Of a stretch of 64,000 nucleotides of DNA, positions 45,363 to 62,046 are shown piece after piece. Under the pieces are notes generated by a model that had not been told where the DNA came from, did no database searches, and saw only the letters and a program-made list of their open reading frames with translations. This stretch comes from Hydrurus foetidus. Its lineage: Eukaryota. Every line of letters begins with the position of its first letter. Position 1 is the stretch's first letter. The stretch covers positions 124,001 to 188,000 of the forward strand of contig UYFQ01000732.1 of the NCBI GenBank assembly GCA_900617105.1, read 5' to 3'. A program made the position numbers and the translations under genes.

Positions 45363-46227
45363 TTCAAGTTAAGTTTCTGAAAATAGGTTTCTCCTCCGTC
45401 GTCAACCGTATTCAAATAGACGATCAACGTCGCCACACGCTGCCCACCATTTCTCATGGGCAAGCGGCTTGTCGGGTTTTCCGGTGCAAAGAAGTCAAAG
45501 TGAGGTCGGTATTCACCCCCACGCTGGTACTGCAATACCTGCATTCCCTCCCCGTTTTCAACAGGCCATTGGGCCAAATCGGAGAGACGCTTTTCTATAC
45601 GTTGAATCAACTCGTTCTCGCCGCGCGCAAAGCACATACCCTGGCTACTACGGAAGTCTTTGACGACGAGTTGTGCCGTCGCTTGGTCATGCGTCTGGGA
45701 GGGGACCATCTTGGGTTGGCTCAGCGCAATAAGACTTTCACATTCCTCTTTGGTTAGAACGTTGCCAAACACCGTGATGCGCGGCTGGGCCATTTCCATC
45801 AGAATGGGAATGCTTCGTCCTTCTAGACTGATTGCTCCTGTTCGAGGGGTTGGAGCTGTCGCGTAGTTGTAGCCTTGCGACTCACTTTTGAATCGTAATC
45901 CTTTGATTCTTTGCGCCCATGCGGCCTTGATTTCTCGCGAAGTTGCGTCAATCAAGGTTTGCTCTAGAACGCCTTTTTGGATGTTGCGGACGACCCACTC
46001 CTGCCAATCGCCCGTCAAATGGTCTGGGTCTGGAAAAACAGCATTGGAAGGCTCAGGCGGCTGACTGCGGAGTTTCTCGATGCATGCACTCACCACATCT
46101 GCATCGAAATCGCGTTCGACCATCACGCCAATCAAGGTTGAGGAAGGGACATTGCGTGCGAGGTTGTCCTTAAGCCAGCCTCGCCAGTTTTCATTAATCA
46201 CCTTTGGGGTTTGGGTCGCGTCCGCCA

Positions 46228-47703
46228 TCACCGCTCCCTCAAACTCTCACTACCCGCCCGCTGCACCGGCGAGAGCAGAAACTCAATAATCCGCCGCTTG
46301 CCGGTTTTAATCTCGGCAGTGACGTTCATCCCCGGACTGATAGGAATGTATTTCCCGTCAATCAGCATGTCCTTCTTCTCCAAGGTCAGGGTCGCCGGGT
46401 AGTAGCTCCCTTTCTTCTCATCCGTCACCGCATCCGCTGACACGTTGTCCACGGTGGCCTTGACCGTGCCGTACTTGGTGAAGCTGAAGGTCTCCAGCTT
46501 GATCTCCGCCCCTTGGCCTCCGTTGACGAAGCCAATGTCCTGATTGGCAATGGACACCTCCGCCGTCACCTGGTTGGAATCGGGCACCACTACCATCAGG
46601 GCCTGGGCACTGGTGACGACGCCTCCTACGGAGTGAATTGCCAGTTGCTGGATGACTCCGGAGACAGGCGCTCTGAGCTGGGTCTGCTTTTGTCGCTGGT
46701 CGGCCTTGGAGTTGTCGGCACTGAGCTGGATGCGTTTGGTGTTTGCCTGGGCGTAGCGGTCTGCCAGTTGGCGCTGGGTTTCTGCCTTGTAGGCGCTCTT
46801 GGACTGTTCGGTCTCGGTTGCGGTAGCCAGTGCTTCTGCCAGTTTGGCTTTCTGGGTGGCCAGATCTCGTTCCAGTTCCACCCGCTCCCGGGTCTTGTCC
46901 TGGGTGGCGTGGCTGGAGATAAAGCCCTGGTCCACCAGCTTGGTGAAGTCAGCTTCCCGGCTTTGGGCCATGGGTAATGTTGCTTCCAGTTTGGCAATGC
47001 TGGCCTTGACGGTGGCGATCTCGGCCTGGCGGCGGTTGCTCTCCGCATCGAGCTTGGAGAGCTTGGCGCTGATGTCTTGCCATTCGGCTTGCAGTTGGGC
47101 GCGTATGGACTGCCCTTCGACAAGCTCAGGACGAGCGGTTTTTGCTTCTAGCCCAGGCAGTACTTGCGTTAGCTGCTTCTCTTTTGATAGCAGTTGCAGC
47201 AGGGCCTGGGTGCGCTGTTCTTCTCTGTGGGCGGCTTTGAGCTGCTCCTGCAGGCTGCTTTGGTCGGCACTGGCCATGGTGGGGTCCAGCTCGACCAGGA
47301 CTTGACCTGCTTGGACTTTGTCACCGTCTTTGACCAGAACAGCTTTAACGACACTGGCTTCCAGGGGTTGGATGACCTTGGTGCGGTCGCTGACGATGAT
47401 GCGGCCCGGAGCAACCGCCACGATGTCCACCTCCCCGAAGATGGACCAGACCAAGGCCAGCACAAACAGAACCATCAGGCCCCAGGCCAGGCGTCGTGGT
47501 GCCGGATGTACCGGGGTTTCTTGCAGGCTGAGTGCTGCGGGCAGAAAGGCCATCTCATCGGCCATGCGGGCGGGACCGGCCAGTTCAGCGCGGTGGGCCC
47601 AGGCGGCTTGGAAGATGGCTTTGTAGCGGGAGAGTAGTTCCAGGATGGGGTGCTTGGGTGGGTGCCCTTCGACAAGCTCAGGGCGAACGGTAGTAGTGGT
47701 CAC
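46228..47703 (-). CDS. hlyD: HlyD-family T1SS membrane fusion protein
   Basis: FLPAALSLQETP, VKDGDKVQAGQVL, APVSGVIQQL, ISPGMNVTAEIKTGKRRIIEFLLSP. Confidence 0.95.
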   Translation of the reverse strand: MTTTTVRPELVEGHPPKHPILELLSRYKAIFQAAWAHRAELAGPARMADEMAFLPAALSLQETPVHPAPRRLAWGLMVLFVLALVWSIFGEVDIVAVAPGRIIVSDRTKVIQPLEASVVKAVLVKDGDKVQAGQVLVELDPTMASADQSSLQEQLKAAHREEQRTQALLQLLSKEKQLTQVLPGLEAKTARPELVEGQSIRAQLQAEWQDISAKLSKLDAESNRRQAEIATVKASIAKLEATLPMAQSREADFTKLVDQGFISSHATQDKTRERVELERDLATQKAKLAEALATATETEQSKSAYKAETQRQLADRYAQANTKRIQLSADNSKADQRQKQTQLRAPVSGVIQQLAIHSVGGVVTSAQALMVVVPDSNQVTAEVSIANQDIGFVNGGQGAEIKLETFSFTKYGTVKATVDNVSADAVTDEKKGSYYPATLTLEKKDMLIDGKYIPISPGMNVTAEIKTGKRRIIEFLLSPVQRAGSESLRER

Positions 47704-49917
47704 GCCCGTACCTCCACATCTGTATCCACTTTGATGCCATCCTGCATGGCCCAGAGGTGGGCATACAGGCCTTGGGGCTTCTGGATCAAGGCTTCGTGGG
47801 GGCCAGACTCCACGATGTTGCCCTTCTCCATCACGATGATGCGGTGGGCGTTTCTGACCGCTGACAGGCGGTGGGCAATGATGAGTACGGTTCTGCCCTG
47901 GCAGATGTACTGCATGTTCTTCTGGATGATGGCTTCACTCTCGTAGTCCAGTGCACTGGTGGCTTCGTCCAGGATCAGGATGCGGGGGTTGGTGAAGAGG
48001 GCCCGGGCAATGGCGACGCGCTGGCGTTGGCCACCTGACAGACTGCCGCCCTGTTCCCCGACCACGGTGTCATAGCCTTCGGGCAGTTCGCTGATGAAGT
48101 CGTGGGCACCGGCGAGTTGGGCCACCCGCATCACCGCTTCGATGGGAGCAGCCGGGTCGGCGATGGCGATGTTTTCTCGGATGGAGCGGTTGAAGAGCAG
48201 GTTTTCTTGGAGGACTACGCCGACTTGGCGGCGTAGTTGGGCGGCGTCGATGAGGCTGATGTCGATACCGTCGACCAGCAGGCGCCCGCCTTCGGGGCTG
48301 TAGAGGCGTTGGACCAGCTTGGTCAGGGTGCTCTTGCCGGAACCGGACCGGCCGACGATGCCGATGATCTCGCCGGGGCGGATGTCCAGGCTGACGGCGT
48401 TCAAGACCGGTGTGGCTTCGGGGCGGTAGCGGAAGACGACCTTGTCCAGGGTGATGCGGCCTTTTAACGCGGGGAGCTGGGCGGTGCTGCTGGGAGGAAC
48501 TTCGGTACGGGTGTTGAGGATGTCGCCCAAGCGGGCCACCGAGATACCGGTCTGCTGGAAGTCGGTCCAGAGCTGGGCCATGCGCATGATGGGTTGGGAG
48601 ACGCGACCTGCAAACATGTTGAAGGCGACGAACTGGCCCACGGTGAGCTGGTTGTCCATCACCAGCTGGGCACCCCACCACAGGGTGGCGGCATTGACCA
48701 GCTTGCCAATCAAGTTCACCCCCTCATGGGCCACGCTGGCCAGGTTCTGGGTTTTGAAGGAGGCAGAGACGTAGGCGGCGAGCTGGTTGTCCCAGCGCTT
48801 GGCGAAGCTGGGCTCCAGGGCGGTGGCCTTCACCGTCTGGATACCGGTAACGGTTTCCACCAGCATGGCCTGGTTTTCTGCACCTCGGGCGAACTTGACG
48901 TCCAGGCGGGCACGCAGGATGGGGACCACGGCCAGAGACAAACCGAAGTACAGCGGCAGGCTGACCAGGACGATCAGGGTCAGGGGCACGCTGTAGAACA
49001 GCATGACGGCGATGAAGACGACCGAGAAGACAACGTCCAGCAAGACGGTCATGGCATTGCCGGTGAGGAAGGAGCGGATGTTTTCCAGCTCGCGGACCCG
49101 GGCGATGGAGTCGCCTACCCGGCGGGCCTGGAAGTAGGACAAGGGGAAGTTGGATCAGGTGACGGAACAAGCGGGCACCGAGTTCCACGTCGATGCGGCT
49201 GGTGGTATGGCTGAAGACATAGGACCGTAAGGCATTGAGCACCGCCTCAAACACCACCACGATGACCAGGCCGATGACCAAGACATCCAAAGTCGTCATG
49301 CCTTTGTGGACCAGGACCTTGTCCATGACTACCTGGAAGAACAAGGGGGAGACCAGGCCAAAGATCTGCAGCATGAACGAAATCAGCAGGACTTCACCCA
49401 GAAGCTTGCGGTATTTGATGAGGCTGGGGATGAACCAGGTGAAGTCAAACTTGGCCAGGGCGCCGGTTAACGAAGCCCGGCTGGTGATGAGGATGAGTTC
49501 ACCCGTCCACTGAGTGGCAAAGACCTCTGCGGATTCGATGGTAGGGCCGGTAGAAGCGCCAGGAACCGCGGACTTGGAGACGTCCTGAAACAGGACGCGT
49601 TTGCCATCGCTTTGCGCCAAGATGACGACGCGCAGCGAGCCGTCTTCGGTGTGCATCACGGCCAATGCTGGCAAGGGGACCAAACCCAGGCGGGTGATAG
49701 AAGAACGGCTGAGCTTGGCCTTCAGGCCCAGGTGTTGGGCTCCGCGTAGCAGGTCAGACGTGGTGACGGGGTCGGTGCTCGCAATACCTAGCTGGTGCGC
49801 CAGGGTGGCGGGGTCGCAGGCGACTTGGTGGAAGCGGGCTACGGCGCAGAGGGTGGCAAAGGCGTCGGACACTTCGGGACCTTGCGTGGCTGGGCCTGCA
49901 TTCTCAACGAGCGACAT
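47700..49917 (-). pseudogene. hlyB: HlyB-family T1SS ABC transporter (C39-like domain + TMD + ATPase), frameshifted by one extra base at 49143-49146
   Basis: Two overlapping ORFs join as ..LFRHLIQLPL|SYFQARRVGD..; GRSGSGKS, LSGGQRQR. Real lesion or sequencing error cannot be distinguished. Confidence 0.88.
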
Positions 49918-50105
49918 CAGCAATCACCACAACAATCCAACGGCCACGGCGCACAATTACATTCCCTTACTTATTCTGTAACGAGCGATGCTACCGAGCT
50001 TGTCCGTCTTGCGGTATCCCCAATATTAGGGACAACGCAACACTTTTTGCCCGATTTGTTTGCCGCTATGCTGTGCCCCAATTAAAAACTCAGGAGGAGA
50101 TGGTC

Positions 50106-50771
50106 ATGTGGCGTGTATTAGTGGTGGAAGATGACCCTTTGATGCGGGAGTTTTTTGAGGCGAGCGTATCCAAATGCGTGGAGCTGGAGCTTGCTGCCGG
50201 CTTTGGGACGGTGGCGCATGCCAAGGCATGGTTGGACCTCAACGCCAAAGGCTTGCACGTGCTGCTGACAGACTTGGGCCTGCCCGATGGGTCTGGGCTC
50301 GACGTTATTCGCCACGCACGCAACCTGAACCCGGATTGCGAGCCACTGGTGATCTCCATGTTTGGCGATGAAGACAATGTGCTGGCCAGCATTGAGGCTG
50401 GCGCGTTGGGCTACATCCACAAGGACAGTACCCCCGACGACATTGCGGCCACCATCCTGGAAATGCGCGCGGGAGGCTCGCCCATCTCGCCCATGGTGGC
50501 GCGTCGCATATTGGCTAAGCACAACAAGGGCAGCCGGAACCCGGTGCCCACAACGCCCGTCGCCACCTCGACGGTATCCGCCCTGCTCTCACCCCGTGAA
50601 CAAGAGGTGTTGGAGTTGATTTCTCAAGGGAATACCTATGCAGAAATCGCGGCACTCCATCAATTGAGTCCCCACACGGTCCAAACCCATATCAAGCGGC
50701 TGTACTCCAAACTCAGTGTTCATACCCGGGGTGAAGCCGTCTTTGAGGCCACCCGTATGGGATTGCTGTGA
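50106..50771 (+). CDS. NarL/LuxR-family response regulator
   Basis: VVEDD, TDLGLPDGSG receiver; LSPREQEVL..HTVQTHIKRLYSKL helix-turn-helix; RBS AGGAGG. Confidence 0.93.
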   Translation: MWRVLVVEDDPLMREFFEASVSKCVELELAAGFGTVAHAKAWLDLNAKGLHVLLTDLGLPDGSGLDVIRHARNLNPDCEPLVISMFGDEDNVLASIEAGALGYIHKDSTPDDIAATILEMRAGGSPISPMVARRILAKHNKGSRNPVPTTPVATSTVSALLSPREQEVLELISQGNTYAEIAALHQLSPHTVQTHIKRLYSKLSVHTRGEAVFEATRMGLL

Positions 50772-52687
50772 AAGTTTTTTCGCGTCGCTTGGTGGAGGGC
50801 TTTGTTCTTGGCTTGTTGCTACTCTGTTGGAGTTTTGGTGCACAAGCAAAGGTTGATGAGTTAAAAACGGCGAGAGCGTTTTTGCAGGTCGCGTCGGACC
50901 TGCCCGAGGGTCTCCCCAAGGAAGAAATACGCGAGGCGGCCAAGCTGCCGTTCCATTGGGACCGGAGCTTTCCCGGCACAACGGGGCAAGCAACTTTTGA
51001 AATTCCGTTTTCGCTGGAGTTTCGCCCGGCCTATCCCTACGCCCTGTACATCCCCAGGATTGGCAATGCATATGCCATCTGGATCAATGATGTACTGGTG
51101 CAAAGCGATGGAGATCTCGCGCAAACCAATGGAGACGACTACGCCAAGCTCCCCGTCTTTGTCACCATCCCGCCCAGCCAGCTTCGCAACGACAACACCA
51201 TTCACATCCGCATCCGTGTTGACCGGGGCCGTAGAGGTGGATTGTCTTCCGTCATCCTGGGACCTCACCATGAGGTCTATCCCATTTTTCTAAAAGACCA
51301 TCGTCTGAGGGAGTATGGGTCGCAAGCAGTAGCAACGCTCAGTTTGCTGGTAGGTCTGATTGCCATGGCTCTTTGGGCGACACAGGCAAACTTCCATCGC
51401 CACCATCATCAAGTGATGTCTGGTTTGGCACACGGGCAGGATCCGCTGTACCTCATGGCCGGGCTCGCTGAGTTGTTCTGGGCCTTCAGCGTAAGTGACT
51501 TTCTGATTGAGTCACCCATCTTGCCTTGGCCCTGGTGGGGGGTGCTGATGGTCACCGCAACCACCTGCTGGGCATGCCTGATGACCCTGTTCTGCGCCGA
51601 GGTCGCGCATTGGCGGCAATACAAGAGCTTTGTCTGGTTTCAGCGCTGGCTCATTGCCTTGGTCATTAGCTGTATTACCTCGACAATTGTTGCCCTGCAG
51701 TTTGGCTATCCGCTGGTGCTCACGGCGTGGTACGTAGTGTTTGGGACCACCTTTTTGGTCTTCATCGCCATCTTTGTGAAGGGGGCCTTTAGGGGTGCCA
51801 GTACTGCCCATCGTTTGGTAGCATTTTCTGCAGTGATCAATGTGGGGGTCGGCATCTATGACCTGTATGTGTTACGTTTTAGCGTGGACTACCGGGACAA
51901 CACCTACTTGCGCTACTCATCCATCCTCTTTGGCATCACGCTGCTGTACATCGTCATCATGCGGTTTCGTTCGGTCAGCGAACACGCGCGAGACTTGATG
52001 GGTACCCTGGCAAGTCGTATCGCCCAACGCGAGAGCGAACTTATGGATACCTATCAGAGGCTCGAAGAGTCCAACCGGGCACAAACAAAGAGCCTGGAGA
52101 GGACCCGGGTGCTACGTGACCTGCACGATGGCGTCGGCTCCCACCTGAGCGTGGCGTTGCGTCAACTGCAAACTGAGAAGTACAGCCGAGAAGATGTTTT
52201 GCACACCGTGAGCGACGCTCTGGACCACCTCAAACTCTGCATCGACGCGATGAGTTTGCCGGCCGGCGACATCACGGCCGCGCTTGCCAATCTGCGCTAT
52301 CGCCTGGATCCACGGCTCAAAGAGTCGGGCATTACCTTGCATTGGCACGTGGGCAAGCTTCCCATCGTCGAATATCTGAACGACAAAGCCATGCGCCAGT
52401 TGCAGTTCATTGTGTATGGAGCCCTGTCTAATGTGCTGCAGCATGCGCGAGCCACAGAAATGCACATTCAAGCCAGCTGTTCGGCGCATGCAATTGAGCT
52501 GCGTGTTGTGGACAACGGCGTGGGGTTCGATAAGAACGAGCAGCGGCGCAAGGGTTTGCAGTCCATGCACGACCGTGCCAAGGTGATCGGCGCCTCCCTC
52601 TCCATCCATAGCCAACCGGGGATGACGATGGTGGAAGTAGAAATTCCTCTGGCGCAGGGCGATTGGGTGATGTCGAGTCAGTATTGA
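50768..52687 (+). CDS. Membrane sensor histidine kinase (7TM-DISM-like input, HisKA_3)
   Basis: Periplasmic domain plus multiple TM; RDLHDGVGSHL, VVDNGVGF, GLQSM. Confidence 0.9.
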   Translation: MKVFSRRLVEGFVLGLLLLCWSFGAQAKVDELKTARAFLQVASDLPEGLPKEEIREAAKLPFHWDRSFPGTTGQATFEIPFSLEFRPAYPYALYIPRIGNAYAIWINDVLVQSDGDLAQTNGDDYAKLPVFVTIPPSQLRNDNTIHIRIRVDRGRRGGLSSVILGPHHEVYPIFLKDHRLREYGSQAVATLSLLVGLIAMALWATQANFHRHHHQVMSGLAHGQDPLYLMAGLAELFWAFSVSDFLIESPILPWPWWGVLMVTATTCWACLMTLFCAEVAHWRQYKSFVWFQRWLIALVISCITSTIVALQFGYPLVLTAWYVVFGTTFLVFIAIFVKGAFRGASTAHRLVAFSAVINVGVGIYDLYVLRFSVDYRDNTYLRYSSILFGITLLYIVIMRFRSVSEHARDLMGTLASRIAQRESELMDTYQRLEESNRAQTKSLERTRVLRDLHDGVGSHLSVALRQLQTEKYSREDVLHTVSDALDHLKLCIDAMSLPAGDITAALANLRYRLDPRLKESGITLHWHVGKLPIVEYLNDKAMRQLQFIVYGALSNVLQHARATEMHIQASCSAHAIELRVVDNGVGFDKNEQRRKGLQSMHDRAKVIGASLSIHSQPGMTMVEVEIPLAQGDWVMSSQY

Positions 52688-52982
52688 TGACTGACTTGCT
52701 TTGCTACTTCAGCAGAGCTGATGTCATCGAGGAGTGCTGGCCGTCAAATTTACGCAAACCCGCGATGGAAGCATATCTGTGCCGCACGAAACCACAAGCG
52801 TGCCGTTTTGAAAATCGCTTTTGGATGGATCTGCATCAGCAACGCGTTTTTTGGCTAAAAGCTGCCGAATTCACGCCTGAAATTGGAAGGTTTTGAAGTT
52901 GTACAGTGGAAGCATAAATGTTCCGCCCCCAATTGGAAGCATAAGTGGGCCTAAGCGGCCCAGATATGGTTCCAGTGACAGC

Positions 52983-53037
52983 GCCTAACGAGTAAGGTTA
53001 GATCGTGCGAAGCCACGATCTGAACCGATTGTTGGAC
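52983..53037 (-). other. attC-like recombination site (55 bp)
   Basis: Minus strand GTCCAAC-AATCG-GTTCAGATCGTG-GCTTCG-CACGATCTAAC-CTTACTC-GTTAGGC: RYYYAAC and GTTRRRY cores, L''/L' boxes with one extrahelical base, unpaired spacers. Confidence 0.85.
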
Positions 53038-53234
53038 GAGCCCGGTCAGACCTACCTCTTCTGAAATTATCTTTTACGCCACATCGCCCGCGAAGGACCT
53101 TGGAACAAGCCAAGCCCGACGGTTGCGACGATTCAAGCCATCATTGCAATGGTGCGTTGCCCAGTTGTGCTGATTTTGGCCGAGCCCAGCCACAGCACCC
53201 ACTGGGCACTGGTGCGCTGGCGTTGATTCCCGAT

Positions 53235-54365
53235 TTAGCTGGCCGCAAAGTCCTTGCCGTTGCACGGCACCGGTGGCGCAATCACCGGCAAGATGCGTCG
53301 TCGCACGATAGCCATGACAGCGCCACAGCAGCGGCAAAGCAGCTTGGGTCGTTCAGTTGGAGTCGCTGATGCTGGTACTGATGAGGCGCAAGCCTTGCCA
53401 CACGTCTTGAACACCAGCAAACGCAGCAACGCAATCAAGCGCTTGCTGTTGGGGTGCAAAAATCCATAATTGCGTGCACGCCGAAAACCCTTGGGCAACA
53501 CGTGCTGCAACACCAGCCGTAAAAACTCCACCCCACTGACGGTGCGCTGCGCTGGCTTCTTGGTTTTGCTGTCCCGCCAGCGGTAGGTAACCTGCCCGTT
53601 CTCGCAGCGCAAAATATCCTTCTCCTGAATCACCCCCCGGTACAAGTAGCGCCCCAAGTAGACCAAGGCCTTTTGACCATCACCCACAGACTTGCAATCC
53701 ACCACCCACTTATCGGGCACGTCGGGCGGCAACGGCAACCCCAACTCGCCCACGGCGGCCAGAAACTTGGCCCTAAACACCTTGGCCAGTGCCTTGTGGT
53801 TGAACAAATAGCCGTCCCCTTTGGAAGTCTTTCGCAATGAGCGCCACAAACCCTTATCGGCATCCAGTGCCGCCGCAGGCATGGCCACATGCACATGCGG
53901 GTGAAAATCCAGTTTGCGTGAATGCGTGTGCAGCACCGCCACTGCACCTGGGCTACCCTGCAACTGCCTGTGGTTCTGGCTGAACGTGCGCAGCGTCTCC
54001 CAGGCGCAATCCATCAAGGCGGCATAGAGCAAGCGCTGATGCTGCCAAACCAGGGTTCGCAGCTCAGCAGGCACGGTGAACGTGATCAGGAAATAGCTTC
54101 CCGGCACCAACGCCTGTGTCTGGCGTTCAATCCAGCGTTGGCTCTCAAAATGCTGACAGTGCGGGCAATTGCGGTGTCCACAGGAATGCGGCACCACGCG
54201 CTGCTCACCACAGTCGCCACAATGGGCCAACATTCCTGGGCCCAGGACAGAGCGACAGTTCTTCATGGCATTCAAGGCCTGGCGCTGACTGGGCAGCGCG
54301 TTGGTGCCGTGGTGCGTGAGGTAATCCAAACCGAAGCGCTCAATGAGGGTGGAGAGCGTGATCAT
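53235..54365 (-). CDS. IS91-family (HUH/Y2) transposase
   Basis: [16 protein letters not shown]n domain, HPHVH (HUH), YLGRY (Y2), [19 protein letters not shown] 54365 overlaps the integrase stop (ATGA). Confidence 0.95.
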
Positions 54366-55293
54366 TTGACACCTGCCCAATCGATATTGAAGCGGTCCAT
54401 CAAGGCCTCGATGCGAACACTGGCCTGATCGTTGGTGTGGCTGGTCAGATGGGTGTAGCGGGCGGTGGTCAGAATGCTGTAGTGGCCCAGAATCTTCTGC
54501 ACCTCCAGCAGATCGACCCCGGACTCGATCAAATGTGTTGCATAGCTGTGGCGAAGGCTGTGCGGGGTGATCTTTTTTTTAGCCCGCAGGAGACGGCCAC
54601 TTGATGCAAAGCCTTTTGCACACCCCCACGGTCCAGCGGGGTACGTGCGCTCTTGGCACCGGCCAAGCCGCCATGGCGGTTGGGGAACAAAAGCTCAGGA
54701 TTGTGGTGGGTTTGCCAGAATCGGCGCAAGACATCCAAAGTGGCCTGTGGCAGCGGGACAAAGCGGTCCCGATTGCCTTTGGAGTCGCGGATATGCACGC
54801 GGTGGCGCACCGCATCGATGTCCGCCACAGTCAAAGCCAGTCCTTCGGAGAGGCGCAAGCCCAGGCTGTACAGCGTGAAATAGAACACCCGGTAGCTCAG
54901 GGTGTGGGTGGCCGCGAATATCGCTTGCGCCTCTTCGACAGTGACGATATCGGGCAGGCGTGAAACCTTGGGTGGTTTGATGAAGTTGGGCATGCTCCAG
55001 GGCTTGCGCAGTACATGCAGGGTATAGAACTTGAAACCGTAAGGATCGATCTTGACCGCGCTCCAAGAATGCGAGGCAACCAGATCGTGGAAGTAGTCGG
55101 TCAGCTGCGCTGGCGACAGGTTGTCGATTTGGTGATCGAAGTAGTCCCCCATGCGTCGGATGGTGCGGGCGTAGGCGTCGATGGTCTTGGGCTGCAGGCC
55201 CTTGAGTTTGAGGTGCTTGAGGTGACTGCGGTACGTGCTGCTAAAGGGCTCAGCAAACGCGCTCGGATCGAACCCGCCGGGGTAAGTGAACAT
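54362..55293 (-). CDS. Tyrosine recombinase, requires a -1 frameshift at an A8 run (54573-54580)
   Basis: Frame 0 ..[20 protein letters not shown]; -1 frame [43 protein letters not shown].. supplies HxxR, H and Y. Confidence 0.88.
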
Positions 55294-55482
55294 GGGCAAA
55301 CTCCAGGTAAGTTGAAGGTCAACATGCACCACAATGGAGGCATGTGCCTACAGCTTACGAATTCACCGAATGGGGTTCCACTCCGCGTAGCGGCTTCGTC
55401 CAACAGCCCTACTGGCGGGTAATCCATTGAAAAGAAGGGCTTAGACCCCTAAAATCAAGCGATCTACCCTCAGGAGAACGCT

Positions 55483-55677
55483 ATGGACGTTAGCAAAGCC
55501 AAGCCCGCACAAGTGCAACAGGCCCAAGCGCTCAAGCGCACCGATGAGTCCCGGCAAACCCAACAGCGCGAGACCCAGGCCAAGGCACAAGCCCCCAAAA
55601 AGGCGGAAGAGCCCAAGCGCCCCGTGGTGAATGCCCAGGGGCAGACCACAGGCCGACTGCTCAACGTCAGCGCCTGA
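55483..55677 (+). CDS. Small Gln/Lys-rich hypothetical protein
   Basis: RBS AGGAG; C-terminal NAQGQTTGRLLNVSA. Confidence 0.7.
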   Translation: MDVSKAKPAQVQQAQALKRTDESRQTQQRETQAKAQAPKKAEEPKRPVVNAQGQTTGRLLNVSA

Positions 55678-55713
55678 GTCCCACCCCTCCACCCATCCTC
55701 CAGGTCGACGGCC

Positions 55714-56145
55714 ATGGTTGCCATCACCGCCACCAACAGCGCAACGCCTTCTTTGCAGGCGTCGCTGAGCATGGTGCACCTGGAGCAGGCCAAGCGGGAG
55801 GCGGACACGGCGGAGGCCAGGGCCCAAGACCTGCGCGCGCAGGCGAACGACGCCGAACGTGAAGCGCAAGGCCGCAAAGACAATGTGCGCGAGCTGAGCA
55901 GTAGCGCCAGCAAGCCGACCGACACGCCCACCAGCAGCACCTACAGCGCACCGTCAATGTCTACGTCCACGGCCAATTTCATCGCCGTGCCGAGTGCCAC
56001 CCAGGAGTTTTTGGTACGCATGTACAAGGCCACCAGCCCGCAGTTCGCTGCCAGTGGCAACGCCCTCAAGGACGACAGCGAGGCCGCCCCGACCATCAAC
56101 ACGCTGGGGCAGGCCACGGGGCGCATCGTCAACCTCAGCGTCTGA
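55714..56145 (+). CDS. Hypothetical protein with coiled coil
   Basis: EQAKREADTAEARAQDLRAQA; C-terminal NTLGQATGRIVNLSV. Confidence 0.7.
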   Translation: MVAITATNSATPSLQASLSMVHLEQAKREADTAEARAQDLRAQANDAEREAQGRKDNVRELSSSASKPTDTPTSSTYSAPSMSTSTANFIAVPSATQEFLVRMYKATSPQFAASGNALKDDSEAAPTINTLGQATGRIVNLSV

Positions 56146-56249
56146 CGTCATTATTAATTTTTTGCATAGTTAGCAAATGAAGTGGCCTTGGACAGGTCGC
56201 CGTGGCAAGCCTACATTGCGGGCCATGACGACCACCACAAGGAGCTTTC

Positions 56250-57575
56250 ATGTCGCAATCCCACGCTAACCCGGCGTCTCCCGCACACCCTGCAGCCGCC
56301 ACCCATGCGCTGCCTTCTTACCTGCAGGCCGATAATCTCGGCCCCTGGGGCATTTACCTGCAACAGGTGGACCGCGTCACGCCCTACCTGGGCCACCTGG
56401 CGCGCTGGGCCGAAACCCTGAAGCGCCCCAAGCGTGCGCTGATCGTGGACGTGCCCATTCAGCTGGACAACGGCACCGTGGCCCACTTTGAGGGCTACCG
56501 CGTGCAGCACAACACCTCGCGCGGCCCCGGCAAGGGCGGTGTGCGGTTTCACCAGGATGTAACGCTGTCCGAAGTGATGGCGCTGTCAGCCTGGATGTCG
56601 ATCAAGAACGCCGCGGTGAACGTGCCCTACGGCGGCGCCAAGGGCGGCATCCGCGTGGACCCAAAGACCCTGTCGCGCGGCGAGCTTGAGCGCCTGACGC
56701 GCCGCTACACCAGCGAGATCGGCATCATCATCGGGCCCAATAAGGACATCCCTGCGCCTGACGTGAACACCAACGAGCAGATCATGGCGTGGATGATGGA
56801 CACCTACTCCATGAACACCGGCTCAACCGCTACTGGCGTGGTGACGGGCAAGCCGATTGACCTGGGTGGCTCACTCGGCCGGCGCGAAGCTACCGGCCGT
56901 GGTGTGTACACCGTGGGCGTGGAAGCAGCACAGCACATCGGCCTGGACATTGCCACTTCGCGCGTTGCGGTGCAGGGCTTTGGCAATGTGGGCGGCATCG
57001 CCGGCAAGCTGTTCGCCCAGGCCGGCGCCCGGGTGGTGGCCGTGCAAGACCATGGCGGCACGATCTATCAGGAGTCTGGCCTGGACGTGCCGGCCCTGCT
57101 TGCCCACGTAGCGGCCCATGGATCCGTGGCCGGGTTTACACCGGCCGAGGTGATTGCCAATGACGCGTTCTGGGATGTGGACTGCGACATCCTGATTCCC
57201 GCGGCACTGGAGCAGCAGATTACCAAGGCGAATGCCGGGCGCATCAAGGCCAAGCTGGTGATCGAGGGCGCCAACGGCCCGACCACGCCCGAGGCCGATG
57301 ACATTCTGCAAGAGCGCAATGTGTTGGTTTTGCCGGACGTGATTGCCAACGCGGGTGGCGTGACGGTGAGCTACTTTGAATGGGTGCAGGACTTCTCCAG
57401 CTTCTTCTGGAGCGAGGACGAGATCAACGCCCGCCTGGTGCGCATCATGAAGGAGGCATTTGCAGCCGTCTGGAATGTGGCGCAAGACCACAAGGTGAGT
57501 TTGCGCACCGCCACCTTCATCGTGGCATGCAAGCGCATCTTGCATGCACGCGAGCTGCGCGGCTTGTACCCCTGA
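56250..57575 (+). CDS. gdhA: Glutamate dehydrogenase (Glu/Leu/Phe/Val DH family)
   Basis: [50 protein letters not shown]. Confidence 0.95.
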
Positions 57576-57602
57576 TACGCAAGGCGAGAACCTCAGCGGA
57601 CG

Positions 57603-58085
57603 CTACTGCAGGGGTTCTTTCAGCGCGTCGGGCAGCGAAAAGGGCGTCACAGCTATGCCCTCTTCCACCAGCTCGCGCGCTTCTTTCTCTGTCGTGCGGC
57701 CGCGGATGCCGCGTTCTTCGGCCTCACCGTAGTGCATCTTGCGCGCCTCTTCCGCAAACTGCGAACCCACATCGGTGGTGGTGGCCACCACGTGGCGAGC
57801 CACGGCCATCCATGCGGCCGTCATGGCTGCGTTGTGCGGCAGGGGAGCAACCGCATTGCCATTGTCGGCAGGAGAAGAAGCTTGAGACGATGGCTGCTCA
57901 GCGACGGGAGCGCGGGCACCCGACAGGTTCAAGCGCGGGGCGCTGAGCTTTTTGACGACCGAAGGGTCACCACACACCGGGCATTGCACCAGCGCGCGGG
58001 CGCACTGGGAAACAAAATCGTCTTCCGAACCAAACCACCCTTCAAACGGGTGGCCTTGGGCGCATTGAAGGTCCAGAACTTTCAT
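57603..58085 (-). CDS. DUF1178 family protein
   Basis: MKVLDLQC..GHPFEGWF, CPVCG, FAEEARKMHYGE. Confidence 0.9.
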   Translation of the reverse strand: MKVLDLQCAQGHPFEGWFGSEDDFVSQCARALVQCPVCGDPSVVKKLSAPRLNLSGARAPVAEQPSSQASSPADNGNAVAPLPHNAAMTAAWMAVARHVVATTTDVGSQFAEEARKMHYGEAEERGIRGRTTEKEARELVEEGIAVTPFSLPDALKEPLQ

Positions 58086-58102
58086 GGGTGTATTGTCTGC
58101 CC

Positions 58103-58702
58103 TCAGGGCAGGGGCAGTGCGGGGCCCCATTGCAAAGACCAGCTGCCCAGCAGGACTTGTTGCAGCCAGAGCGCGCCCGCCAAGGTCTTGGCATCGGTGA
58201 CCCGGCCCTGCTGGCACCACTGCAGCAGCTCTTCCGGCGTGGTAGTGAACACTTCCAGAAATTCGCCGGCGTCCAGTTGCGCCGCACCGGGCGTCAGACC
58301 GCGGGCAAACCAGATGTCTATGAATTCGGTGGAATACGCAATCACGGGGTGCATCTGGCCCGCCCGTGCCCATTCGGTGGCGGTGTAACCGGTTTCCTCC
58401 AGCAGCTCACGCTGGGCACAGAACTGCACGCTCTCACCCGCGTCCAGCTTGCCCGCCGGAAACTCCACCATCACCTGGCCAATGGGATAACGGAACTGCC
58501 GTTCCAAGACCACACGGACCTGGCCGGCGTCGTCTTGCAACAGGGGGATGACCATCACCGCACCGGGATGGACAAAGTACTCACGAGTCGCGGAAGCGCC
58601 ATCGGGCAAGGTGACGGTGTCGCGAAAGGCGTGGAGAAACTTGCCTTTCAGAATCTCTACGCTGGAGTGCGTGTGCTCACGCAGGTGGCTGTCGTCTTCC
58701 AT
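58103..58702 (-). CDS. NUDIX hydrolase (ADP-ribose pyrophosphatase-like)
   Basis: HPGAV, EFPAGKLDAGE..CAQRELLEETGY Nudix box. Confidence 0.92.
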   Translation of the reverse strand: MEDDSHLREHTHSSVEILKGKFLHAFRDTVTLPDGASATREYFVHPGAVMVIPLLQDDAGQVRVVLERQFRYPIGQVMVEFPAGKLDAGESVQFCAQRELLEETGYTATEWARAGQMHPVIAYSTEFIDIWFARGLTPGAAQLDAGEFLEVFTTTPEELLQWCQQGRVTDAKTLAGALWLQQVLLGSWSLQWGPALPLP

Positions 58703-58717
58703 GGTGCGAACCGGAGG

Positions 58718-59020
58718 TCAGTTGCGCCGCTTGAGCAGGTAGCGATAGACAAAACCGGGGAAGGCAAACGTCATGAACAAGGCCCAGGTGATGGCAAAAA
58801 ATTCCCAACCCTGTGGGGTGATCTGCCCAGCGTGTTTTTCCAGGCCCGCGCCCACCATGCCGGTCACGCCATACCAGAGCACCAGCTCTAGCAGACGCAG
58901 GCCCAGCGACTTGCGGCTCGCCACAGGCAACACGCCCATGATTTTTTCAGTGAAGAATGGCAGGTTGGCACCCAACAGTGCCAACACCACCAACGCACCC
59001 ACCGCGAAAGAATTACCCAT
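58718..59020 (-). CDS. DUF2818 family membrane protein
   Basis: ANLPF, QGWEFFAIT, FAFPGFVYRYL; usual position after nuoN in Burkholderiales. Confidence 0.85.
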   Translation of the reverse strand: MGNSFAVGALVVLALLGANLPFFTEKIMGVLPVASRKSLGLRLLELVLWYGVTGMVGAGLEKHAGQITPQGWEFFAITWALFMTFAFPGFVYRYLLKRRN

Positions 59021-59034
59021 CAGTCGACGCGACC

Positions 59035-60549
59035 TCAGGTGCCCAGCATCTGCTTGATGGACGCTGCACACAGCGCCATCAGCCCGCTGGGGAACAGGCC
59101 CAACAGCAGCACCAGGGCGCCGTTGATGCACAGCACAACGCGCACATCCATCGGCGCACTCACGGTGGTGGCGGTAATGGGCTCGTCAAAGTACATGACC
59201 TTGATGAGGCGCAGGTAGTAGAACGCCCCTACCAAAGACGTCAGCATGGCGAACACGGCGAGGCCGAGGTAGAACGAATCACCGGAAGCGATCAGGGCCT
59301 GCAGCACCGACAACTTTGCATAGAAACCGACCATGGGAGGAATACCGGCCAGCGAGAACAAGGCGATGGCCATGATGGCGGCATACAGCGGACTGCGCTG
59401 ATTCAGACCCGCGAAGTCGGCAATCTCTTCGCTCTCAAAGCCTTCGCGTGAGAGCAGCAAAATCACGCCGAAGCTGGCCAGCGTGGTCAGTACGTAGCTG
59501 ATCACATAGAACATGGCGGAGCTGTAGGCATTGGCGGCCGGGGCAATATTGCCGTTGACCACCCCAGACATCAGGCCCAGAAGCACAAAGCCGATCTGGG
59601 CAATGGTGGAGTACGCCAGCATGCGCTTGACGTTGGTTTGCGCGATCGCAGCAAAGTTGCCGATCAGCAAAGAACCTACGGCCAGCACCATCAGCATCTG
59701 CTGCCAGTCGCCCGCCAGCGGCAACATACCCTCCACCAGCAAACGCATGACGACGGCGAATGCCGCCAACTTAGGCGCAGCACCAATCATCAGCGTCACG
59801 GCCGTTGGGGCACCCTGGTACACATCAGGTATCCACATATGGAACGGCACCGCACCAAGCTTGAACGCCAAACCAGCCACGATGAAGACCAGACCAAACA
59901 CCAGTACACCATGTTGGTACTTGCCAGACGAAATGGCCCGGAACACGGCGTTTACGTCCAGGGAACCAGTGGCACCATAGAACATGGACATGCCGTAGAG
60001 CAGGAAGCCCGAAGCCATCGCGCCGAGCACAAAGTATTTCATGGCCGCCTCGGTGGCGGTTGCATTGTCACGGCGCAGGGCCACCAGCGCGTAGCTGGAC
60101 AGTGTCAACAACTCCAGGCCCAAGTAGGTCACAAGGAAGTTGTTGCCGGAGATCATCACGAACATGCCTAGCAAGGCAAACAGGTTCAGCGTGAACATCT
60201 CGCCACCGCGCAGCATGTCGCGCTGGCCCGCGTAGGGGCGTCCGTACACCAGGGTCACCATCACCGCCAGCGTGGCAAAACACTTGAGCCAGTTGCCCAT
60301 GGAGTCACTGACCACCATGTTGCCAAAGCCGTACACGGTTTGACTTGCGCCCAACCAAGTTTGCACAGCACCAGTACCGTAGCCAGCCTGAAGCAGGGCC
60401 ACAACAGCTAAGGTTGCCAGGGTCAAACCATAGGTGAGGTTGCGTAGAGTGCTTTTTACATCCAGGTCCACCAGGGCAATGACGCAGGCCATCACCATCA
60501 AAATGATTTCCGGGTAAACCGTGATCCAACTGAGTTTGTCAATCATCAT
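59035..60549 (-). CDS. nuoN: NADH-quinone oxidoreductase subunit N
   Basis: [30 protein letters not shown]. Confidence 0.97.
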
Positions 60550-60570
60550 TCGTCTCTCAATTCAGTCTGA

Positions 60571-62046
60571 TCAGTTCAACTTGGACACTGCCACATGCTT
60601 GAGCAGCTGGGCCACCGAAGCATCCATGACATCGGTAAAGGGCTTGGGGTACAGGCCCATGTACAGCACGGCGACGGCCAGCAGACCCAGCATCAGGAAT
60701 TCACGTGCGTTGATGTCCACCAGTGATTTCACATCGTCATTGGCTACTGGGCCCAGGTACACGCGCTTGAACATCCACAGCGTGTAGGCCGCACCAAAGA
60801 TCAGGGCACTGGCGGCGGCAAAGCCGATCCAGAAATTGAATTTCACGGCACCCAGAATCACCATCCACTCGCCCACGAAACCGGCTGTTCCTGGCAGGCC
60901 GCAGTTGGCCATGGAGAACAGAAGAGCAAACGCAGCGAACTTGGGCATGGTGTTGACCACACCGCCGTAGCTGGAGATTTCACGCGAGTGCACACGGTCG
61001 TACAGCACGCCAATGGACAGGAACATCGCGCACGACACAAAGCCGTGGGCAATCATCTGCACCAGGCCACCGGAAACTCCGAGGTCATTGAAGATGAAGA
61101 AACCCAGAGTCACAAAGCCCATGTGGGCGACCGATGAGTAGGCTACGAGCTTTTTCATGTCCTGCTGCACCATGGCAACGAGGCCCACGTACACCACTGC
61201 GATCAGGGACAGTGCGATCATGAAGCCGCCCCATTCATGCGCAGCATCTGGGGCAATGGGTATCGAAAAGCGTAGGAAACCGTAGGCACCCAGCTTCAGC
61301 ATGATGGCAGCCAGCACGGCAGAACCACCGGTGGGGGCTTCCACGTGCACATCGGGCAACCAGGTGTGTACGGGCCACATCGGCACCTTCACCGCAAACG
61401 CGGCAAAGAAGGCAAAGAACAACAAGGTCTGCGGCGTGCTCGCCAAGGGGAGCGCATGCCAGGTAGCCAGATCAAAACTGCCACCGGATTTGGTGTACAG
61501 GTAAATGAGCGCCACCAGCATGAGCAGAGAACCCATCAAGGTGTAGAGGAAGAACTTGAAGGCCGCGTAAATCTTGTTGGGACCACCCCAGATACCGATG
61601 ATCAGGTACATCGGGATCAGCGTGGCTTCGAAGAACACGTAGAACAGCAGGCCATCCAGTGCCGTGAACACGCCAATCATCAGACCACTGAGGATCAGGA
61701 ACGCGCCCATGTATTGGTTCACACGCCGGGTAATCACTTCCCAGCCAGCGATCACTACCACCACATTGATGAAGGCAGTGAGCAACACAAACCAGAACGA
61801 AATACCATCTACACCCAGGTGGTAGTTGACGTTAAAACGATCAATCCAGCGCGCGTTTTCCACAAACTGCATGGCCGCGGATGCGGTATCAAACTGCCCA
61901 TACAACGGCAATGTCACCAGAAAACTGACCACGGCTCCCACCAACGCGATCCAGCGCACCACGCCGGCATGCTCATCACGCCCGAACGCCAGCAGCACCA
62001 AGCCGAAGGCGATGGGAGTCCAAATTGCAAGGCTCAACAAACCCAT
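60571..62046 (-). CDS. nuoM: NADH-quinone oxidoreductase subunit M
   Basis: GVDGIS, VKVPMWPVHTWLPDVHVEAPT, KKLVAYSSVAHMG. Confidence 0.97.
   Translation of the reverse strand: MGLLSLAIWTPIAFGLVLLAFGRDEHAGVVRWIALVGAVVSFLVTLPLYGQFDTASAAMQFVENARWIDRFNVNYHLGVDGISFWFVLLTAFINVVVVIAGWEVITRRVNQYMGAFLILSGLMIGVFTALDGLLFYVFFEATLIPMYLIIGIWGGPNKIYAAFKFFLYTLMGSLLMLVALIYLYTKSGGSFDLATWHALPLASTPQTLLFFAFFAAFAVKVPMWPVHTWLPDVHVEAPTGGSAVLAAIMLKLGAYGFLRFSIPIAPDAAHEWGGFMIALSLIAVVYVGLVAMVQQDMKKLVAYSSVAHMGFVTLGFFIFNDLGVSGGLVQMIAHGFVSCAMFLSIGVLYDRVHSREISSYGGVVNTMPKFAAFALLFSMANCGLPGTAGFVGEWMVILGAVKFNFWIGFAAASALIFGAAYTLWMFKRVYLGPVANDDVKSLVDINAREFLMLGLLAVAVLYMGLYPKPFTDVMDASVAQLLKHVAVSKLN

Follow-up and report, generated by a model that had tools for sequence, protein, structure and literature searches.

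An IS91-family element with its own tyrosine recombinase and an attC-like end, probably inserted at G|TT by that recombinase

The window, which is the whole stretch of 64,000 nucleotides analysed here, carries on its minus strand a complete-looking example of a widespread 2.4-kb mobile element. Its two genes code for a tyrosine recombinase and an IS91-type Y2 transposase, and its right end is an attC-like hairpin. Such IS91-family elements probably move as single-stranded circles that are inserted at G|TT by their own, frameshift-controlled recombinase. A wider reading is put forward tentatively, with rather less confidence. The family may represent a class of self-sufficient elements that combine an IS91 rolling-circle initiator with a recombinase devoid of the IntI insertion, which would act on a folded single-stranded attC-like site and home backwards into the attC half that IntI disfavours.

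Layout, surroundings and spread of the element

The features of the element are given in Table 1. From 55404 on the minus strand, the GTT core is followed by GGAC, a GC palindrome, a leader of ~90 nt, the recombinase gene, the transposase gene, a stretch of ~190 nt, the hairpin (53045–52990) and G|TT at 52989. The boundaries were set by the convention used for IntI, the crossover being possible anywhere in the shared GTT. Homologues with both ends have a length of ~2.25–2.5 kb, with the exception of one of 1.6 kb. The 55-nt site quoted in the original prediction (53037–52983, minus strand) matches the window letter for letter, as does GTTGGACGA at 55404–55396. With both strands taken into account, the window holds just two copies of this 9-mer, one per element end. 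The same prediction stated that no target duplication is visible: there is none beyond the core, but the GTT core itself is found at both junctions.

Table 1. Positions of the element features in the window
Feature	Position	Strand	Description
Whole element	52989..55403	minus	~2,415 bp between two G|TT cores
Left end	55383..55404	minus	GTT core, GGAC and short GC-rich palindrome; terIS-like layout; pairs with R'' in the circle
Tyrosine recombinase	54362..55293	minus	~310 aa across the -1 frameshift; Phage_int_SAM_4 and Phage_integrase
Slippery A8 run (A AAA AAG)	54572..54581	minus	Conserved -1 frameshift site; A8 itself at 54580-54573
IS91-family Y2 HUH transposase	53235..54365	minus	376 aa; zinc-binding domain; ATG overlaps the recombinase stop codon
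oriIS-like motif	53061..53075	minus	Internal; precedes the hairpin; diverged in the subfamily of the window copy
attC-like right end	52983..53045	minus	R'' arm, extended (53045-53031); L''-like arm containing an extra base; stem-loop; L'-like arm; then G|TT (52989)
Host sigma-70-like promoter match	55427..55455	plus	Just outside the left end

Judging from the closest homologues, the flanks are probably host chromosome of a Comamonadaceae-like bacterium. The region beyond the left end has an attC grammar score of -1.4, i.e., it is ordinary chromosome with no attC. A sensor kinase gene adjoins the element at one side; at the opposite side are the promoter match and a small gene. An IntI gene is absent from the window, where only an Xer-like match at 30% identity and the recombinase gene of the element were found. 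The empty allele of the window copy was sought in 401 family genomes: a DNA search gave weak matches only, and a protein search with the neighbouring 64-aa gene matched 14 of the 401 genomes, the sensor kinase adjoining in 0 of the 12 loci examined. Note that positions 52934–52974, 15 nt outside the right end, form an imperfect 41-nt hairpin with an 11-nt direct repeat nearby, a homologue of which is absent among the collected loci. Further away, the region 46228–49923 holds type I secretion genes coding HlyD and HlyB-like proteins, the HlyB-like ABC gene being found as two overlapping frames near 49140–48724. Two adjacent small genes at 55483–56145 without Pfam domains share a C-terminal motif, and the pair recurs in several family genomes.

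A transposase search of genome contigs identified 58 homologous loci with 39–89% identity (one 13-residue match aside). The left-end pattern was found in 123 metagenome stretches within 2 of the 64 parts scanned, which leads to an estimate of ~3,900 in total. No relative was found in viral contigs.

The transposase and the frameshifted recombinase

Both predicted enzymes were recognized in domain searches. The transposase is of the IS91-type Y2 group, with matches to Pfam PF04986 and PF14319 and to NCBIfam NF033538 (364.8 bits for a cut-off of 125). The tyrosine recombinase matches PF13495 and PF00589 and has all the catalytic residues (R, K, HxxR, H and Y). Its frame is split at the A8 run, a feature overlooked in the original prediction, and the catalytic H-x-x-R and Tyr are found in the -1 frame. 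Both halves are present in 40 homologous loci: the frame moves by -1 at the A run in 33 of them and by +1 in 2, and the remaining 5 read through in a single frame, in one case across an assembly gap. The frequency of the -1 shift (33/40) rules out that the split gene is a sequencing error or a pseudogene. Relative to 12 close homologues, dN/dS amounts to 0.07–0.14 upstream of the shift, to 0.07–0.21 downstream of it (-1 frame) and to 0.10–0.23 for the first 150 codons of the transposase; both genes thus evolve under purifying selection and both enzymes are maintained. As its reading frames stand, the recombinase would need the conserved -1 frameshift to be made, for which ribosomal frameshifting and transcriptional slippage are alike possible. 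Such a shift would keep the active recombinase scarce. The window copy has a Pro in the amino terminus domain of the recombinase where the homologues shown have Leu, and it may on this account be inactive.

The recombinase was also predicted to be devoid of the IntI-specific insertion. A gap of ~30 residues relative to IntI4 and 15 IntI sequences bears this out. The IntI model TIGR02249, whose cut-off is 265 bits, gives 154 bits for an in-frame homologue and 74 bits for the 0-frame part of the window gene. The recombinases of the family define their own clade in the tree (100/100), deeper branching being without support for a sister group among IntI, Xer and other IS91-linked recombinases. On this tree, the evolutionary link between rolling-circle insertion sequences and integrons that the original prediction suggested is no more than a possibility. 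Six rows were dropped from this tree (4 faulty frameshift reconstructions, 1 duplicate and 1 partial sequence) and the chimeric L224 row was kept in. The IntI insertion is described as essential for integron function (PMC8138268, in part), which weighs against folded-strand recombination by a recombinase that lacks it.

ORF 1040–1976 of L224 (G016:C1:261500-266200) is an in-frame chimera composed of the 5' part of the element recombinase and an IntI-like carboxyl terminus, that is, a natural hybrid integrase. It apparently results from a deletion between an inverted element and a downstream intI gene. The consideration of G016 as an IntI-free host was discarded since L224 ends IntI-like in this genome, and an integron was thus probably once present there.

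The attC-like end, the GTT junctions and the IS91-type signals

The right end displays the features of attC sites, namely, the R''/L''/L'/R' hairpin, the extra base and the G|TT core. Its R'' arm pairs with the element's own start and mismatches the adjacent flank, as proposed for the window copy, and this property extends to the family: among the homologous recombinase-Y2 loci, which were collected as a check, a 3' attC-like end complementary to the 5' end recurs. Of the 58 homologous loci, 48 have the end motif (R''); the other 10 are fragments, or their contigs break off within the transposase gene or shortly past it. In 37 complete elements, R'' is complementary to the own start at 7/7 positions (34 elements) or 6/7 positions (3 elements). 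The match of R'' to the flank in the same elements is of just 2–6 of 7 positions and never reaches 7/7. Both partners changed together in four elements (GTTC/GAAC).

The 55-nt site folds with z = -2.8 to -2.9 relative to shuffles. The original prediction that the site is completed only in the circle agrees with the energies computed for the window copy, ~-20 kcal/mol for the predicted circle junction versus ~-10 for the integrated junction, and the circle junction is the more stable in 34/34 elements. The bottom strand folds more stably than the top strand in 32/34, the energy gap being small (~1 kcal/mol). Among 30 aligned ends, 8 of the 12 stem pairs changed on both sides and 97.6% of cells are paired; the shuffle test of this covariation is inflated by the relatedness of the aligned ends. 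A search of positions 46000–62000 with the attC grammar has the element's own end as its sole match. A covariance model built for this analysis from 14 host attC sites, distinct from that of IntegronFinder, has its top window match exactly at 52983–53037, but with 14.5 bits and an E value of 0.41.

This weak score as a host attC would be expected if the hairpin were the relic of one ancient attC capture by an IS91-like element, serving now only as a terminator or as an end-recognition hairpin. The variation of spacer lengths and of the extra base in the family, together with the stems without clear bulge of L037, L046 and L049, points in the same direction. A relic is nevertheless most improbable: changes in R'' go along with changes at the left end, 2.4 kb away, there is hardly any variation in AAC and GTT, and the junctions lie within the GTT core. 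The position of the element ends at G|TT, also part of the original prediction, is sustained by GTT at 32/32 left junctions found through the transposase and at 65/67 right junctions (69 unique right ends, 67 of them parseable). Another 40 left ends, identified with a search pattern that did not include the G, are all preceded by G (40/40).

Signals of the IS91 type are kept next to these junctions. The GGAC of the left end reads GTCC on the bottom strand, and GTCC and GTTC are tetranucleotides of the IS91 family (PMC13181058, in part). The present family starts with GTT-GGAC or GTT-GAAC followed by the palindrome, the GTT being invariant in front of this terIS-like layout. An oriIS-like motif is found in ~56 of 67 right ends, 21–47 nt before the R'' arm, the best of these matches being similar to the canonical oriIS in L234 and L235. 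These two canonical IS91-family elements end directly after oriIS and start with GAAC and a GC palindrome. The original prediction would have been weakened by homologues that end in classic oriIS/terIS motifs; such motifs persist, but inside the hairpin/GTT ends. In the IS91 family the right end is oriIS, next to a target of the CTTG/GTTC/GTCC type. The right end of the element does not abut oriIS and is defined by the hairpin at G|TT, ~80–110 nt past the oriIS-like motif. From the arrangement of these motifs, the element looks like an IS91 unit plus a recombination site added outside oriIS.

The same signals give some credit to insertion by strand transfer catalysed by Y2, with the attC hairpin/AAC as landing signal and the recombinase acting later or apart (to resolve cointegrates or multimers, or to excise the element). 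The palindrome with GTCC/GTTC lies just inside the left GTT, a nick after GTCC falls within the ambiguous GTT junction, and the ends differ in other IS91-recombinase groups. Insertion of this kind appears, however, unlikely. Canonical IS91 ends right after oriIS and picks its tetranucleotide on one side only, whereas the spacing between motif and end is long and variable here; GTT, which is unneeded for canonical Y2 insertion, is required at both junctions; and the right flanks violate the xTxx target rule. Distant IS91-recombinase elements from Caballeronia, Clostridium, Rhizobium and Segatella plasmids (L061, L062, L236, L237) have an internal CCATA oriIS-like motif past which the element continues. 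At least in L061 and L062, hairpins that do not follow the attC grammar are found past this motif.

Targets, orientation and mode of insertion

Flanks were scored with the canonical attC grammar for 138 left ends (159 minus 20 with <100 nt of flank and 1 duplicate). This score replaced a folding-energy screen for upstream attC that was too unspecific. An inverted host attC abuts the left end in 30/138 cases at a score of at least 9 and in 50/138 at a score of at least 7, compared to ~2 in shuffles. In the same orientation as the element, attC scores of at least 9 are found in 0/138 and of at least 7 in 16/138, 15 of these 16 scoring inverted too. The grammar misses visible attC sites (e.g., L002, L016, L025, L033) and the fraction in attC is therefore a lower bound. 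The complementarity between R'' and the start cannot alone tell which end of attC is the crossover end; orientation was defined by the extra base, the direction of intI and the covariance model. The grammar orientation coincides with the intI direction at clear host sites in 8 of 16 intI regions, the rest being mostly short or site-less; a few weak matches are on the other strand. The host-attC covariance model was run on 41 loci picked for long flanks from ~180. It gave 34 matches, all of them on the strand opposite to the element (34/34) and 15 abutting its left end, and 0 on the elements' own ends. Elements beside an intI gene (L025/L197, L201, L047) are inverted in all three cases.

An in-frame homologue is carried by the E. 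coli plasmid NZ_LT985243.1 (IncC), where it lies within a class 1 resistance integron, in inverted orientation and flanked by aadA1 and qacE-delta1. Plasmid R100 provides the exact empty site. Their comparison reveals a precise insertion at R'' of the aadA1 attC, with a single shared GTT core, no target-site duplication and 2 unrelated mismatches in 600 nt. An isolated right-end remnant of 254 bp, 95% identical to the E. coli copy, was found facing reverse-oriented genes in a plasmid of Shewanella ANA-3 (L213:3001-3254).

The element was originally taken to bear the signature of an integrated integron cassette. This reading is not borne out: relatives in host attC sites are inverted and at R'', the half that IntI disfavours, and the element's own end scores weakly as a host attC. 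IntI prefers the attC bottom strand, which leads to crossover at R' and same-orientation insertion, the top strand being ~100-fold less efficient in the case of aadA7 (PMC11641012, in part). The orientation of the family is opposite to this preference, so that IntI is unlikely to be the main actor, though it is common in the hosts and able to use GWT sites. The statement that the element lies outside any integron array stands for the window copy and fails for at least a third of its relatives, which are in host attC (at the looser threshold).

Many copies, that of the window included, are found at plain non-attC GTT sites. These targets define a two-box consensus: 71% of 51 sites have T at -11 together with A at -8, and some of the 51 resemble decayed attC. 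The target of the window copy does not fit the consensus; this copy occupies a secondary GTT site. Genome G018 has 25 left ends, and self-mobility, proposed in the original prediction, is likely given this number. Of 20 examined, 19 are not in attC and 1 is inverted in the hairpin of another copy. Eight copies were found in the incomplete assembly G023, which shows no IntI above the cut-off; one of these copies clearly occupies an inverted attC, and another has a same-orientation score of 7.1. In L307 (G018) and L113 the element is inverted in R'' of another element's own hairpin, which indicates that the family uses its own end as a target. In the left flanks of L002, L007 and L012, the host attC is followed past its R' end by one and the same sequence with an A7-8 run, which may be the terminus of a different insertion sequence that targets attC. 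In a Photobacterium plasmid (L060:795-2267), a group II intron is found just past the inverted attC that holds the element, two attC-associated mobile elements being thus together.

It was considered that the element could be a passenger cassette, moved by the host IntI through its attC-like end into attC or attG, with its own recombinase doing otherwise or just assisting. Its end obeys the attC grammar and is the top window match of the host-attC model at the exact coordinates. IntI over the cut-off is found in 28/48 host genomes and is able to place cassettes at GWT sites throughout a genome (bioRxiv 2022.09.11.507474, in part); it could thus account for a solitary GTT insertion taken by itself. 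An IS91-family element, ISShvi3, was also described in a cassette-like structure within an integron (PMC9229058, in part). Transport by IntI is nonetheless quite unlikely. A clear same-orientation insertion at R' is found in 0/138 left ends, and the 3/3 copies beside intI are inverted. The attG consensus is GWT, yet GAT junctions number 0 among the 67 right ends. The 25 left ends in one genome also argue against a passenger, as does the end sequence, which is nearly fixed across transposases of widely different identity, unlike host attC; the failure of the host-attC model to match any element end in the 41 loci is a further argument.

The preferred reading is therefore insertion by the element's own recombinase. 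The Y2 protein would generate bottom-strand DNA by rolling-circle displacement, and the joined ends of the circle would fold into an attC-like recombination site. The recombinase would then carry out one strand exchange at AA|C of the folded junction into a double-stranded GTT site. The donor would be the folded bottom strand, as with IntI and with IS91 circles; IS91 inserts only bottom-strand single-stranded circles (PMC13181058, in part). The target would be read as a double-stranded two-box site. This layout is offered by the left half (R''-5 nt-L'') of an inverted host attC, the preferred target in this model, and would explain the orientation of insertion. Y2 would use the GTCC/GTTC tetranucleotide together with the internal oriIS-like motif for making or amplifying circles and not for insertion. 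Reversal of integration is the simplest guess for how a first circle may arise from a single integrated copy. Insertion in a host attC would rebuild the site with the left end of the element as R'', after which element and cassette might be mobilized jointly by IntI.

Related systems and significance

CTX phage and other Xer-exploiting elements produce ssDNA by rolling-circle HUH replication and have a folded att that host XerCD joins to the double-stranded target dif. The logic is analogous, but the present element encodes its own recombinase and targets GTT or attC instead. Besides ISShvi3, further IS91-family elements with an upstream tyrosine recombinase are ISAzo26, ISSod25 and ISWz1. IS1111-attC elements, which target attC, have an IS110-type transposase. 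Integron cassettes and IntI share with the present family the hairpin grammar with an extra base, the G|TT core, the site completed in the circle and a related recombinase domain set. They differ from it in that the family has its own recombinase without the IntI insertion, inserts inverted at R'', has a fixed end sequence and pairing extended beyond the R box, and spreads in multiple copies.

The IS91 family (IS91, IS801, IS1294, IS1294b) has in common with the element the Y2 HUH transposase, the lack of target duplication, the terIS-/oriIS-like motifs, an overlapping upstream gene and the bottom-strand circle logic (PMC13181058, in part). The upstream gene codes for Orf121 in that family and for a tyrosine recombinase here, where the end is an appended attC-like hairpin instead of oriIS and the GTT core is shared at the junctions. 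ISShvi3 has the same two-gene layout. It was seen next to attC inside a Shewanella integron, the attC being treated as adjacent; by this published description, the element-borne attC-like end, the inverted R'' targeting and the frameshift set the present family apart (PMC9229058, in part). ISCR28 of sul4 modules, also with an IS91-like transposase, has an attC detected at or right after its end; its authors read this as passive cassette carriage (PMC12772301, in part). Group IIC-attC introns and IS1111-attC elements are likewise attC parasites, the introns inserting opposite to cassettes at a TTGT/T consensus (PMC7923331 and PMC9229058, both in part). Their chemistry is different (retrohoming for the introns), they are described without an attC-like end of their own, and the present family, unlike them, uses many non-attC sites too.

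The two-gene IS91-recombinase group is thus already known, ISShvi3 by attC (PMC9229058, in part) and the attC after ISCR28 (PMC12772301, in part) being the nearest published hints. In the openly accessible literature that was searched, a description of the attC-like end, the inverted targeting or the frameshift was not found, nor was an explanation of what the recombinase does in such two-gene elements. The portions available of PMC5737581 and PMC8138268 hold nothing on such ends.

The structure of the end offers a direct, testable answer on the role of the recombinase. Insertion of the element rewrites attC sites, and annotation would miscall it as a cassette or a pseudogene. If the recombinase, though devoid of the IntI insertion, acts on a folded single strand, the family would provide a test of the origin of integron-type recombination and of the purpose of that insertion. 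Should the more tentative reading as a self-sufficient element class be true, these elements would be a third kind of attC parasite, already present in clinical class 1 integrons, and would provide a present-day model of the stage that preceded integrons.
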